A stretch of DNA of 60,532 nucleotides from Acidobacteriota bacterium (GCA_022340775.1 JAJDNH010000166.1:1-60532), one strand, 5' to 3'; positions 37,162 through 52,013 are shown, counted from the stretch's first letter. Notes: generated by a model from the letters alone, not told the origin. Numbers and translations: made by a program.

Positions 37162-37566
37162 ATGAGCATCCACGTTGTGCGCCTGGGCACGCCGCGACTT
37201 CACAACGAGGGCCTGCGCATCGGCACCGTCCGCCGGCCACCGCGCGGCGTCCCCAAGGAGCGCTTCGCGCTCGATGACTGGTACGACGTCTGGCTGCCGA
37301 ACCTGGCGCCGAGCGCCGAGCTGGTGAAGCAGGCCCGGACCGCGGCCACGTCGCGCGAGTGGCAGGTGTTCGTCCGCAAGTACCGGGCCGAGATGGCGAC
37401 GCCGGAGGCGGCGCGGGTGCTCGACCTGCTGGCGGCGTTGTCCCACGAGACTGACTTTTCGGTCGGCTGCTACTGCGAGGACGAGTCCCACTGCCACCGC
37501 TCGGTGCTGCGCGCGCTCCTGGCCGAGCGTGGGGCGGACATCGCCCCCCACCCAACCAGTGATTAA
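37162..37566 (+). CDS. DUF488 family protein
   Basis: RRPPRGVPK, LAPS.EL, CYCEDESHCHRSVL. Confidence 0.88.
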   Translation: MSIHVVRLGTPRLHNEGLRIGTVRRPPRGVPKERFALDDWYDVWLPNLAPSAELVKQARTAATSREWQVFVRKYRAEMATPEAARVLDLLAALSHETDFSVGCYCEDESHCHRSVLRALLAERGADIAPHPTSD

Positions 37567-37595
37567 GTTATTAAGATGTTAGGTAATTAGGTTTC
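37544..37595 (+). repeat. C-box plus AT-rich 8-bp tandem array
   Basis: CCCCCCACCCAA then CCAGTGAT TAAGTTAT TAAGATGT TAGGTAAT TAGGTTTC. Confidence 0.8.
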
Positions 37596-37669: not shown

Positions 37670-38110
37670 ATGGAAGCCATCGAGGTGGTCCGGCATTTCG
37701 TCGAGGCCATGAACCGGCGTGACGTCGAGGCGATGGCCGGGTGGATGTCGCCCGACCACGTTCTGATCGACGGAGAGGGCGACCTCGTGGCCGGCGGCGA
37801 ACGGCTGCGAGCCGCCTGGAAGGCATACTTCTCCCTGTTCCCCGACTACGCCATCACCATCGAGGAGATCTTCGCAGCCGGGGACTCGGTGGCGGTCTTC
37901 GGGACTGCTGAGGGCACCTACGCACCCGACGGCAGAATGGACCCCACGAACCACTGGACCATCCCCGCCGCCTGGCTCGCGGTCCTCAAGGGCGAATCCA
38001 TCGCATCCTGGCAGGTCTACGCCGGCACCGAGCCGATCCGCAGGATCATGGCGAGGTACCGGGAGGAACGATCGCGGGCCGGAGAGGATGAGGACCTAGG
38101 AAGTAACTAA
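37670..38110 (+). CDS. SnoaL/NTF2-like protein
   Basis: VVRHFVEAMNRRD..FPDY.I.IEEIFA.GD.VAV. Confidence 0.88.
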   Translation: MEAIEVVRHFVEAMNRRDVEAMAGWMSPDHVLIDGEGDLVAGGERLRAAWKAYFSLFPDYAITIEEIFAAGDSVAVFGTAEGTYAPDGRMDPTNHWTIPAAWLAVLKGESIASWQVYAGTEPIRRIMARYREERSRAGEDEDLGSN

Positions 38111-38208
38111 GTTGTTGAGTGATTAAGTTGCCCCCGCCCCCCCCAAAGACGCGAGACGTACCCCCCCCAAGAAGAAAGAAGAGAGAGGAGAGGCCGCCAC
38201 CCACCCGC
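38100..38208 (+). repeat. Composite repeat: 8-bp array / C-box / 7-bp array / C-box / 7-bp array / C-box
   Basis: GAAGTAAC TAAGTTGT TGAGTGAT TAAGTTGC; CCCCCGCCCCCCCC; AAAGACG CGAGACG; C8; GAAGAAA GAAGAGA GAGGAGA; CCACCCACCCGC. Confidence 0.75.
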
Positions 38209-38217
38209 AGTGAACGG

Positions 38218-46100: not shown

Positions 46101-46200
46101 CAGATCGCAGAGGTCCAGCCGCCGGAACCGGGCAAACAGGATCCCCTCACCAGATGCGGTCCCGCGGTGGGGCGGGGGTGGGGCGGAAGGAGGCGAGCGG
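46101..46200 (+). repeat. REP-like intergenic repeat, copy A
   Basis: Shares TCCCCTCACCA and exact 21-mer CGGTCCCGCGGTGGGGCGGGG with 54392-54476. Confidence 0.7.
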
Positions 46201-49525: not shown

Positions 49526-50749
49526 TCATTCGCGGACCTTGACTCTCTGCCCGTCCTCGAGATTCTCGGGCCCGGCCACGACCACCTTTTCGCCCGGCTC
49601 GACACCGGCGAGGATATCGACCTCTGAGCCGTGCCGCTGTCCCAGCGAAACCGCCCGCCTGGTGATGGTGTCGCCGGAGAGGACGAAGGCGACGCTCTTC
49701 CCATCCAACTTTCGGATCGCGGTCTGGGGAACCACTGCCCTTACCGGAGCGGTACCGGGCTTCCGCTGGGCCGGCTCGAGGAACGTCACCTTCACACCCA
49801 TGTCGGGGAGGATGCGCGGGTCGAGCTTCTCGAACGAAATCCGCACCTTGACCGTTGCCTTCTGGCGGTCTGCGGTCGGGATTACGGTCCGCACGTGGGC
49901 CGGGATCCTCCAGTCGGGGTAAGCGTCCAGAACCGCCTCGACCCGCTGCCCAGGGGTCACGCGGGCGATGTAGGACTCGTTGACATCAACCTCGATCTCG
50001 AGAGAGCTCATGTCCACAATCGTCGAGATACCGGTGCGCGTGAAGCCGCCGCCCGCTGACACCGGCGAGACCATCTCACCGGGCTGCGCGTCTTTCGACA
50101 CCGCCGTACCGGCAAACGGCGACCGGATCACGTAATTGTCGAGGTCCTGTTGTGCCACGGCCAGCTGAGCTTCGGCTGCGTCGAGCTGCTGCTTGGCGAC
50201 CTCCAGGCGCGCTTTCAGGCTGTCAACGGTGGTCTCGGCATCGTCCAGTTGCTCCCGGCTCGCCACCTGGTCCGCGGCCAGGCCGTGCACCCGTTTCAGG
50301 TTGCGCTCGGCGTTGGCCAGGTTGACGCGCAGGTCGGCCAGTCCCGCCCTCGCGACGTCGCGCTCGGCCTTGGTGGCGTCGCGGCGTGCCCGGGCATCGG
50401 AGTCATCGAGACGGGCCAGGACCTGCCCCTTCTCGACCTGCATCCCCTCCTCGACCATGACCTCGGACACCCGTCCGGTGACCTTGGCCGCCACTGTCGC
50501 CTTGCGCCTCGGCGTCACGTACCCGCTGGCGTTGAGCACCGCTGTTTCCTGCGACCCAGCGCCTGGCCTGGCCGCGGCGACCTCGACCTCGGCGGTGCGG
50601 CCGGAGCCGAGCACGAAGACGACGGTGGCGGCAAGGGCCACGATGACCGCAACCGTCGCCACCAGGATCCAACGCCCGCCACGGCCCGCCGTCCTCTGAT
50701 GGCGGTCGATCCTGAGCTCTGCGAGGTTCGGCTTCTCGTGCTCGTTCAT
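49526..50749 (-). CDS. Efflux periplasmic adaptor (MacA/HlyD-like)
   Basis: N-terminal TM, GRV..V.VEEG..V..GQVLARLD, coiled hairpin, IRSPFAG. Confidence 0.93.
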   Translation of the reverse strand: MNEHEKPNLAELRIDRHQRTAGRGGRWILVATVAVIVALAATVVFVLGSGRTAEVEVAAARPGAGSQETAVLNASGYVTPRRKATVAAKVTGRVSEVMVEEGMQVEKGQVLARLDDSDARARRDATKAERDVARAGLADLRVNLANAERNLKRVHGLAADQVASREQLDDAETTVDSLKARLEVAKQQLDAAEAQLAVAQQDLDNYVIRSPFAGTAVSKDAQPGEMVSPVSAGGGFTRTGISTIVDMSSLEIEVDVNESYIARVTPGQRVEAVLDAYPDWRIPAHVRTVIPTADRQKATVKVRISFEKLDPRILPDMGVKVTFLEPAQRKPGTAPVRAVVPQTAIRKLDGKSVAFVLSGDTITRRAVSLGQRHGSEVDILAGVEPGEKVVVAGPENLEDGQRVKVRE

Positions 50750-50788
50750 CTGACTCCCTGCCGTTCGTATCGTCGGATTCTACAGCAT

Positions 50789-50819
50789 CACGCCCGGATC
50801 ATCCGTCCGCAATCTACTG
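50789..50819 (+). repeat. 5' fragment of the MITE-like element
   Basis: GCCCGGATCATCCGTCCGCAATCTACTG matches the start of copies 1-3. Confidence 0.55.
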
Positions 50820-51124
50820 GAGGCCCAGCCGCGCTTAGGTCACTCCGGCGGCCGCGCGGTCGCGGGGCGACCGCCCGTCTCACGATTCCGGACAGTCGCA
50901 AAGCCACGAGAACAGATCACCGGCCCGACGGCGACTGCCCGGAATCGCTCGAGCCGCCTCTTTCAATCGTGAGGCCGATTCTCTGATCGCCAAGGGCCGA
51001 GATTGCCCCCCTTGACGTTTCTCGCCATCGCCAACCCCTCGTGAATGCCGTTCAGAGAAACATCAAGGACCGCACGTCCGGTTGAACTCCACATGCTCCG
51101 AAACGCAGTATAGGGGGGTACTCC

Positions 51125-51261
51125 GGGCGGGTGGGGGTCCTCTCACTCTTCACCCCTCAATCTCTGGGGCGGGTTGGGGATGCGTTTCCCGTCTTCCGTC
51201 TTCCGTTTCCCTTCCCCGGGCGGGTGGGGGCAACCTAATTACCTAGTCACTTAATCACTTA
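51125..51261 (-). repeat. Composite repeat: three 13-bp G/C-boxes separated by distinct 7-bp arrays plus an 8-bp array
   Basis: GGGCGGGT(G/T)GGGG at 51125, 51167, 51218; spacers CCTCTCA/CTCTTCA/CCCCTCA and CGTTTCC/CGTCTTC; minus strand TAAGTGAT TAAGTGAC TAGGTAAT TAGGTTGC. Confidence 0.85.
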
Positions 51262-51266
51262 CCGGG

Positions 51267-52013
51267 TCACTTCGTCTTCTTGGTGCCCCTCGTGGTCTTC
51301 TTCTCTGTGGGCTTTTCTGTCCCTGTGGCTTTCTTGGCAGCCTTGGCCTTTGTGGTTGCTGTCGCCTTCTTGGTACCCGCAGCCTTCTTAGTGGTCTTGG
51401 TGGCCTTGGTGGCCTTGGCGGTCGTCGCCTTCTTGCCGGTCTGGACGGTCTTCTTCTCCGGCTTTTTCGGCTTCGCGATGGCCGTGCCGCTCTCGTCATA
51501 GCCATCGAGCACCCCGTCGAGACCAGCCCAGAAGGTGCCGTCGGCGACCTTGAGGGTGGCAAGGTAGATGAGCGCCTGGTGGTCGTGCCCTTCGAGCAAC
51601 GCGGAGGCTGCCGTGGCCACCGTCTTGGGATCCGGGTTGTCGGCATCCTCGGGCAGGTCGAGCACACCGTCCTCGTGCGGCAGGCCGACGCCGTCCAGGA
51701 ACTCGACCAGCAGGTTCCGGCGCTGCACCATATGGAGGTGGAACAGGAACTGGAACAGCACCGGCTCAGGGAGGTCCTTGGCCAGGTGAGTCAGGCGACC
51801 AGCCACCATCTCCGCCGACAGCCGGCGCACCGACTGCATCCGGAACTTCAGCTCCTTGGCGAGCACCCCCTGCAGCGCCTGTCTGGCCTCTCCCTCCGCG
51901 TTCTCCCAGGTCACGGTGGCGGCGGAACGCTGCTCGTCCTCCGTCAACAGATCCCAGACGGCAAAGGCTCCACGATCCTCGACCGCTTCCTTGAGGCTTC
52001 GGGTGTCGGGCAT
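51267..52013 (-). CDS. Hypothetical protein with Lys/Thr/Ala-rich histone H1-like C-terminal tail
   Basis: FLD..G.PH.DG domain followed by KKATT/KATK repeats. Confidence 0.8.
   Translation of the reverse strand: MPDTRSLKEAVEDRGAFAVWDLLTEDEQRSAATVTWENAEGEARQALQGVLAKELKFRMQSVRRLSAEMVAGRLTHLAKDLPEPVLFQFLFHLHMVQRRNLLVEFLDGVGLPHEDGVLDLPEDADNPDPKTVATAASALLEGHDHQALIYLATLKVADGTFWAGLDGVLDGYDESGTAIAKPKKPEKKTVQTGKKATTAKATKATKTTKKAAGTKKATATTKAKAAKKATGTEKPTEKKTTRGTKKTK

Follow-up and report, generated by a model that had tools for sequence, protein, structure and literature searches.

The locus examined here raises the question of how copies of one constant G-rich box came to be separated by tandem repeats of different short words, and what such an arrangement does beside the end of a gene. 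The window, a 60,532-nucleotide stretch of the genome of an Acidobacteriota bacterium, carries the array at positions 51125-51261. Three G-boxes are present, all of them exact matches to the pattern GGGCGGGT[G/T]GGGG, and their start-to-start spacing of 42 and 51 nt leaves spacers of 29 and 38 nt, exactly as the original prediction described its three near-identical 13-bp boxes. Over the full window, the pattern with at most one mismatch occurs four times against 0.80 expected, and at least four matches were found in 3 of 100 shuffles. The prediction also held each spacer to be a tandem of its own 7-mer. This is correct for spacer 2, in which Tandem Repeats Finder identifies 3.3 copies of period 7 at 51189-51210, but spacer 1 (29 nt) shows no more than weak periodicity (self-match of 0.45 for period 7 and 0.43 for period 8) and is a degenerate, shortened copy of a 36-nt cassette class, class E. 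Similarly, the 8-mer block said to cap the array after the stop codon of an upstream gene does have period 8 (3.2 copies at 51236-51261, Tandem Repeats Finder), but the neighbouring gene (51267-52013) is encoded on the minus strand, which on that strand places the array behind the gene, 3' of the stop codon. The array is typed E-A-C by the cassette classes given below, a combination present elsewhere too, for example on contig C152, and its features are as follows.

51125..51137, plus strand: G-box 1 (a C-box on the mRNA-sense minus strand); exact pattern match, repeat family D1
51138..51166, plus strand: class E cassette of 7-nt CCTTACT-type words, degenerate and cut to 29 nt (class E mode 36 nt)
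51167..51179, plus strand: G-box 2, T variant; exact pattern match, repeat family
51180..51217, plus strand: class A cassette of 7-nt CCGTYTY-type words; period 7 by Tandem Repeats Finder, commonest class (66 of 205 spacers)
51218..51230, plus strand: G-box 3; exact pattern match, repeat family
51231..51266, plus strand: terminal class C cassette of 8-nt TAATCACY-type words, without a closing box and abutting the stop codon; period 8 by Tandem Repeats Finder, kept in the sister species
51267..52013, minus strand: gene for a 248-aa protein without Pfam match, its stop codon (51267-51269) touching the array

The array is not an assembly artefact, since contigs from three public sequencing runs belonging to three studies carry it unchanged, with zero differences. 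Contig X1 (51058-51496), from a run that is possibly the source sample, spans the full array, and contigs X2 (51190-51429) and X3 (51146-51371) each cover part of it. In support of the original prediction, whole cassettes differ between species at the same locus; these three contigs contain no module-number variants of the window locus. The array itself does not fold beyond shuffled sequences (z +0.52 and +0.32). A search of 50650-51400 found no promoter-like site and one weak terminator-like site, at 50930-50918 on the minus strand (shuffle mean 0.6), with none inside the array; the shuffle-level folding and the lack of an internal terminator-like site rule out the array as a hairpin or intrinsic terminator. 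An Rfam 15 scan of both strands of 50400-51400 returned no matches at E up to 1. The adjoining 248-aa protein has orthologues in all four relatives searched, with a conserved N-terminal part, and its ~65-residue Lys/Ala/Thr-rich tail resembles the histone H1-like tails of bacterial nucleoid proteins.

A genome-wide scan for boxes joined to 7/8-mer arrays, the check proposed in the original prediction, shows that the window array is one of many. The window's genome comprises 3.83 Mb in 251 contigs (66.6% G+C, 93% completeness), on which a simple purpose-made caller placed 3011 genes at rough positions. It contains 26 exact boxes and 827 box-like 13-mers, the latter forming 139 clusters of at least two; 132 of these span at least 25 nt and are counted as arrays, and 65 have at least three boxes. 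The family consensus of the box is GGGYGGGYGGGGG, which alternates with cassettes of fixed length, and all boxes within an array are on one strand. By the rough gene calls, 126 of the 132 arrays are intergenic. With this recurrence throughout the genome and in relatives, and with contigs that carry the locus unchanged, the pattern is neither peculiar to one site nor an artefact. The window contains two further loci of the family.

37544..37594, minus strand: second locus, a box with a class C cassette
38097..38209, minus strand: third locus, right behind the stop codon of a SnoaL-like ORF, with a class C cassette, boxes, a short class B cassette and purine words

Five k-mer clusters accommodate 190 of the 205 inter-box spacers, and ~15 are unplaced. 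The classes number six to seven, because one k-mer cluster mixes the 7-nt words of class E with the 8-nt words of class F.

Class A, 66 spacers: 7-nt words CCGTYTY
Class B, 43 spacers: words GCGTCTN
Class D, 32 spacers: 8-nt words TCCGTCAC
Class C, 21 spacers: 8-nt words TAATCACY
Class E/F, 21 spacers: 7-nt words CCTTACT or 8-nt words YTTCTCAC
Class G, 7 spacers: words CTCTAAC

Nearly all members of the main spacer clusters have a best period of 7 or 8. Cassettes hold about four words of 7 or 8 nt and have modal lengths of 36 nt (class C), 36 nt (class E), 32 nt (class A) and 37 nt (class B), and individual word positions keep their own variants across cassette copies. The modal lengths and position-specific variants show that the cassettes are inherited units, and the earlier view of the spacers as freshly made microsatellites is not upheld. 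The order of cassettes is also constrained. First, neighbours of the same class occur in only 5 of 228 transitions. Second, classes G and E are confined to the end of the array that faces the hairpins described below, with four transitions from G to E and 10 of 15 transitions from E leading to A. Third, classes C and D tend toward the last position, class C being the commonest after the last box (24 of 132 arrays). Box variants are tied to the cassette that follows (mutual information 0.896 vs 0.735 ± 0.033 in shuffles) and, more weakly, to the one that precedes (0.976 vs 0.886 ± 0.044), and adjacent boxes are of the same type slightly more often than expected (55 of 228 vs 44.3 ± 5.5), a weak signal when taken as a trace of target duplication. 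Twenty array pairs share at least 60 nt at 92% identity or more, and several of these homology tracts begin or end at a box.

Arrays are placed with respect to the ends of genes, and the window copy is typical of the rule. When the last box lies within 60 nt of a gene, that gene usually points its stop codon at the array in sense (42 of 51 cases, nine exceptions), and at 15 nt or less 16 of 18 genes do so. Genes more than 60 nt from the last box show no orientation bias (32 vs 41), and 74 of 124 arrays are in sense overall. For 28 full hairpin blocks a gene could be assigned on the side of the array, and 24 of these genes are co-directional with the block; in 774 kb of the sister species the array-adjacent gene is in sense in six of seven. 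Of 97 arrays with genes called on both sides, 38 are between convergent, 45 between tandem and 14 between divergent genes, which is no more than the common surplus of convergent and shortage of divergent pairs. The suggestion of a 3' regulatory structure thus stands as regards the location 3' of the gene and the strong orientation bias.

The cassettes also affect the reading frames that run into them. Stop triplets occur in the cassettes at 5.67 per 100 nt on the C strand vs 1.84 on the G strand. Within the 48 nt after the stop codon, further stops in all three frames are found for 50% of 42 array-adjacent genes vs 4.1% of 1326 other 3' flanks (Fisher p 4e-17); the corresponding values in the sister species are three of four genes vs 4.3% of 258. 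Every frame is closed because the words carry TGA, TAA or TAG and, being 7 or 8 nt long and so not divisible by three, shift these stops from frame to frame. Another genus has words (ATCCAGC, AATCTGC and others) without C-strand stops visible by eye, so the stop-pad property may be genus-specific.

Neighbouring arrays also tend to share an orientation, in 41 of 55 adjacent pairs (permutation p 0.0005), and single boxes show no co-orientation with arrays (67 vs 77). Array strand does not follow strand-symmetrised GC3 skew (35 vs 28) or plain coding GC skew (Fisher p 0.57), and a replication-linked polarity of the KOPS or Chi kind is ruled out by this lack of a composition-skew match. Three contigs of the window's genome, C29, C68 and C112, are array-dense with nearly a single orientation (0:9, 0:7 and 9:1) despite mixed gene orientation. 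Integron-like gene cassettes were considered for these contigs and rejected, the genes between arrays being large and of mixed orientation.

On the other side of the array, the flanking sequences (5' side as read on the G strand) are also repetitive, and 95 of 127 such flanks are mutually related. In the window this flank is a block of ~265 nt (50843-51106) made of long hairpins, followed by the next gene.

51006..51106, minus strand: hairpin block part 2, ~47 genome copies (blastn)
50843..51004, minus strand: hairpin block part 1, ~86-90 genome copies (blastn)
49526..50749, minus strand: next gene downstream on the same strand, an HlyD-family membrane-fusion protein whose start lies 93 nt past the hairpin block

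Part 2 contains a 14-bp hairpin whose arms vary between copies yet still pair. The consensus fold of 31 full hairpin blocks has -88.7 kcal/mol on the C-box strand vs -62.8 on the other, and their wobble pairs on the C-box strand are 181 G-U vs 24 A-C. Because copies exist in both genomic orientations, a mutational strand bias is an unlikely cause of this difference. The strand that folds is therefore the C-box strand, which is the minus strand of the window. Typing of hairpin blocks by regular expressions left 86 of the 132 arrays unclassified. Just past the window block, 50790-50830 resembles the start of another multi-copy intergenic module, one that several further loci also carry.

The array in the window makes up one half, that nearer the gene, of a single copy of a composite non-coding repeat. 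Read in the sense of the mRNA, on the window minus strand, the unit runs from the stop codon through the cassettes with their C-boxes to the hairpin block, and it includes one to six cassettes of ~45-50 nt each, C-box included, with about four purine-rich words followed by the C-rich box. A whole unit can be seen as an insertion on contig C173, where ~455 nt comprising a hairpin block and an E-A-D array lie between two convergent genes whose stop codons stand 1 nt from each other in the sister species. This single clean insertion, inspected by eye, has no target duplication and no terminal inverted repeat.

Copies of the repeat are scattered over the genomes of a single family of Thermoanaerobaculia (Acidobacteriota). 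Paired boxes 16-46 nt apart are found in 15 of the 61 family genomes and 8 of the 24 genera, against 0-2 per strand for a reversed-pattern control. The array-rich genomes have 33 (G000, that of the window), 22 (G062), 16 (G045), 14 (G001, the sister species), 10 (G054), 9 (G009), 8 (G013) and 7 (G033) matches; across them the boxes are the same, and the words between the boxes differ by genus. Outside the family, the pattern is present in one of 298 phylum genomes sampled, and that sole match is an unrelated tandem repeat. The site orthologous to the window locus is occupied in three other genera by other tandem-word repeats, some of them as hairpins. Another genus (G013, contig C3, locus L008) has three tandem ~70-nt C-rich units at the orthologous site, beside a relative of hairpin part 2.

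Comparison with the sister species, which belongs to the same genus, provides evidence on how the arrays change. The window locus reads hairpin-box-E-box-A-box-C-stop and its orthologous counterpart, at a gene that is 79% identical, reads hairpin-box-D-box-F-box-C-stop; both have class C next to the stop codon, whereas neither inner cassette is the same. In the window, hairpin part 2 is 74% identical to its positional counterpart in the sister species and 82-89% identical to six paralogues in its own genome, and because it is closer to these paralogues, the hairpin block must have been replaced or converted, not simply inherited. Seventeen loci compared between the two species and classified by eye comprise four presence/absence differences, two cases of opposite orientation, one in which the sole difference is two extra 8-nt words, six in which the stop-proximal cassette is common and the hairpin-proximal ones are different, and four with other differences. 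As far as can be judged from the sequences, the arrays seem to change by replacement of whole blocks, hairpin element included, and not by additions next to a leader that stays the same. The iterative module addition originally suggested fits this turnover poorly, the window hairpin block not being an inherited copy. At sites that carry an array in the window's genome, a small palindrome of the type GCGATTCGC..GCGAATCGC is often present in the sister species (L029, L025 and others); strict copies of this palindrome number none in the window's genome vs four in 384 kb of the sister genome.

Among known repeats, the REP and BIME elements of enterobacteria and Pseudomonas are the nearest in overall character. 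They are high-copy intergenic sequences located mostly behind gene ends and rarely between divergent genes; they form mosaics of a few short modules, their hairpins on the transcript strand could protect upstream mRNA, and REP units are palindromic and alternate in orientation. The arrays are likewise high-copy and extragenic, with few copies between divergent genes (132 arrays, 126 intergenic, 14 of 97 divergent), and they too are mosaics of a few conserved modules in variable combinations with hairpins on the transcript strand. Unlike REP units, however, the box is not palindromic and the array has no fold, hairpins being confined to the attached block; the boxes are all direct, with none alternating, and the modules between them are cassettes of tandem 7-8-nt words. 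The BOX elements of Streptococcus pneumoniae have the form boxA-(boxB)n-boxC, are intergenic and thought to be transcribed, contain one repeated module type and fold as a whole. Compared by description, they share with the arrays an intergenic location and a variable number of ~45-nt internal modules between fixed end modules, but the arrays have about seven cassette classes in partial order, avoid same-class neighbours and lack an array fold. The STRR sequences of cyanobacteria are heptamer simple-sequence repeats; the cassettes agree with them in being intergenic tandems of a few 7-8-nt units, but STRR arrays repeat a single word.

With moderate confidence, we regard the element as a composite 3'-UTR repeat of REP/BIME-like character whose remodelling proceeds block by block, the joints falling at the boxes. 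The unit would be transcribed with the upstream gene, and the hairpin block would fold in the transcript and act at its 3' end as a barrier or stabiliser, in the manner of REP hairpins; the strand-specific wobble pairing and the orientation toward genes both point in this direction. The cassettes may serve as a pad that has no structure of its own and separates stop codon from hairpins. In the window's genome they close all three frames, and because of this, insertion beside or into a gene end would be harmless. Copies appear to spread as whole units, as in the one clean presence/absence case. They are remodelled by exchange of the hairpin block along with the cassettes next to it, presumably through ectopic recombination or re-insertion; the joints fall at boxes and the stop-proximal cassette stays in place, as 6 of 17 loci show. 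Slippage also adds or removes words, which is shown by one locus. The one match among RNA libraries, a 351-nt contig, is another copy of the family, may be DNA and demonstrates neither transcription nor its strand. The REP/BIME-like reading gives no account of the constancy of the box over eight genera with different words, nor does it account for the number of about four words per cassette or the co-orientation of neighbouring arrays.

Strand-specific pairing and the lack of target duplications or terminal inverted repeats would fit single-strand DNA transposition equally well. The element may be a non-autonomous remnant of a selfish ssDNA transposon of the IS200/IS605 or REPIN kind, moved by an HUH (Y1) transposase and without any role in RNA, a reading that we consider unlikely. 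Pairing selected on one strand of a hairpin-rich element would then reflect hairpins recognised as ssDNA, and the boxes would be sites of cleavage and joining at which cassettes are excised and inserted box to box. The clean insertion, judged by eye, would be in keeping with such an element, as would the direct boxes within arrays, the co-orientation of neighbouring arrays (41 of 55) and the closer tie of the box variant to the following cassette than to the preceding one (0.896 vs 0.735; 0.976 vs 0.886). Y1_Tnp genes occur in the window's genome (three matches), as in REPIN/RAYT systems, and in 54 of 61 family genomes. Their distribution, however, does not track that of the arrays (54 vs 15 of 61 genomes), and the two full Y1 genes are flanked by inverted repeats of their own that differ from the unit, whereas a REPIN/RAYT system has a single-copy Y1 gene bracketed by the repeats that it serves. 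Insertion coupled to replication is contradicted by the lack of a match between array orientation and composition skew (35 vs 28), and orientation follows the adjoining gene instead (42 of 51). Adjacent boxes are barely more alike than chance (55 of 228 vs 44.3 ± 5.5), and recent copies are few (the 20 array pairs described above). Neither a cognate transposase nor a conserved target was identified for the unit. The two Y1 (IS200-like) genes, at C207:597-1607 and C229:7767-8768 of the window's genome (L032, L031), encode proteins of ~335 aa; a 10-mer common to both loci, GGTGCCAGGC, has 36 genome copies and is possibly part of a separate REP/RAYT-type system.

A rather improbable alternative is that box and word classes are binding sites for sequence-specific proteins, either DNA proteins of the nucleoid or IHF/HU type or RNA proteins, with the four words promoting cooperative binding and the arrays organising or regulating neighbouring genes. 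A protein platform of this kind would suit a box that is constant over 8 of 24 genera while the words are lineage-specific, and it would suit fixed cassette lengths and word numbers, avoidance of same-class neighbours and a partly fixed class order. There is also precedent in print. In Geobacter metallireducens, tandem octamer and heptamer sites (classes 1-3, and a family of four GGACCGG units) have three to five tandem 7-9-nt units and tens of intergenic copies, as do the cassettes; one consensus, TCTCCGTS[Y], resembles the class D word, and arrays of four to five units of 7-8 nt are treated as putative regulator sites for which IHF/HU-type nucleoid binding is proposed (Aklujkar et al. 2009, PMC2700814). 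In the accessible portions of that paper, the Geobacter sites are mostly opposite-strand pairs, and no constant G-box, chain of mixed cassettes or hairpin block is described. Heptamer repeats have been reported as GGGNATC in Xanthomonas and Nostoc, where those of Xanthomonas are transcribed and four units are preferred (Rehm et al. 2015, PMC4692102), and as TAACTGA in Beggiatoaceae (MacGregor 2015, PMC4679880). According to the sections of these reports available to us, such repeats resemble the cassettes in their 7-nt units, intergenic location, preference for about four units and proximity to stop or start codons, but they are single-word arrays, whereas the present arrays join several classes of word through a constant box and are attached to a hairpin element. 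Against a protein platform, the search for a candidate protein was negative and the genes next to arrays have no protein family in common; CsrA, considered as a reader of the GGA-rich words, was not found in the genome, which is 93% complete, and cassette content at orthologous loci differs between sister species, which is odd for gene-specific regulation.

Two further proposals assign the box to a dedicated machinery. In the first, which is improbable, the box would be the recognition site of a family-specific machinery that exchanges or adds ~36-nt cassettes at the hairpin-proximal end of arrays positioned right after stop codons. If true, this would amount to a genome-wide, polar, cassette-based writing of 3'-UTRs, with a vocabulary of words belonging to each genus between identical boxes. 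In the second, quite improbable and already put forward in the original prediction, a dedicated system for cassette addition or repeat synthesis would recognise the box and add cassettes beside the hairpin block, with CRISPR-like polar growth and templated words. The polarity seen at 6 of 17 loci, the many word sets that other genera have between identical boxes and one locus of another genus with four tandem copies of a single box-plus-cassette unit would all be consistent with such a system. However, the window hairpin block is not an inherited copy, so block replacement explains the polarity. The cassettes are also of few, old classes at ~80% identity, not fresh perfect repeats, and no associated gene was found.

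The gene associations put forward with the original prediction are not supported. The only reverse transcriptase gene is present in 25 of 61 family genomes, many of them array-free, but in just two of the eight array-rich ones; no GxxExxY protein was found, and the four-helix-bundle IVS protein (PF05635) occurs once vs 132 arrays. No protein family is recurrent among the array-flanking genes. The reverse transcriptase of the window's genome (C41:4-1455, L061) has 483 aa with an RVT_1 domain alone, and its identity of 87-94% to copies in several other genera suggests that it has recently moved horizontally.

The original prediction had itself set the arrays apart from CRISPR, and this judgement is sound, the 13-nt repeat being too short and the spacers being recurrent periodic cassettes. 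The two kinds of locus do share a constant repeat with variable inserts of similar length, a structured flanking 'leader' and older units far from it. In CRISPR loci, however, the repeat is ~23-50 nt and the spacers are unique, whereas the inserts here are periodic and recur in about seven classes, a single genome has 132 arrays, and the 'leader' is a multi-copy repeat in its own right and is subject to replacement.

It is very improbable that the boxes act by forming G-quadruplexes (or, on the opposite strand, i-motifs) at which polymerases pause or recombination is stimulated: the boxes do consist of G3-5 runs, two neighbouring boxes jointly offer six G-tracts, and four-unit G-rich heptamer repeats form quadruplexes in Xanthomonas and Nostoc according to the available part of the report (PMC4692102), but four G3 tracts with 1-7-nt loops are found in just 45 of 360 boxes (three tracts in 224, two in 92), which also speaks against the single-box quadruplex of the original prediction, the window boxes have three tracts each, a quadruplex between boxes would need loops of 29-38 nt, and the explanation given for the heptamers does not carry over because the words are G-poor on the box strand.

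No box-plus-word arrays have been published for Acidobacteria in the full-text literature that we searched, which excludes subscription journals and PDF supplements, and a constant G-box that chains different word cassettes to a hairpin block is a design for which we found no published description. Intergenic tandem repeats of 7-8 nt have been known in bacteria for decades without an accepted explanation, and they appear here in an unusually legible form. With the box-array system it becomes possible to test at which level, RNA or DNA, such repeats act, which factor recognises the box, and how the mosaic is reshuffled. The elements also have practical consequences. They break short-read assemblies, the contig of the sister genome ending inside the orthologous copy of the window element, and they can make annotated genes end too late or too early; the DUF488 ORF at 37162-37566, for example, reads through the C-box and has its stop codon supplied by the class C cassette. 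The 146-aa SnoaL-like ORF nearby (37670-38110) is flanked by two direct class C cassettes of the same family. Elsewhere in the window, at 46166-46186, Tandem Repeats Finder identifies 1.9 tandem copies of a G-rich 11-mer, GGTGGGGCGGG.
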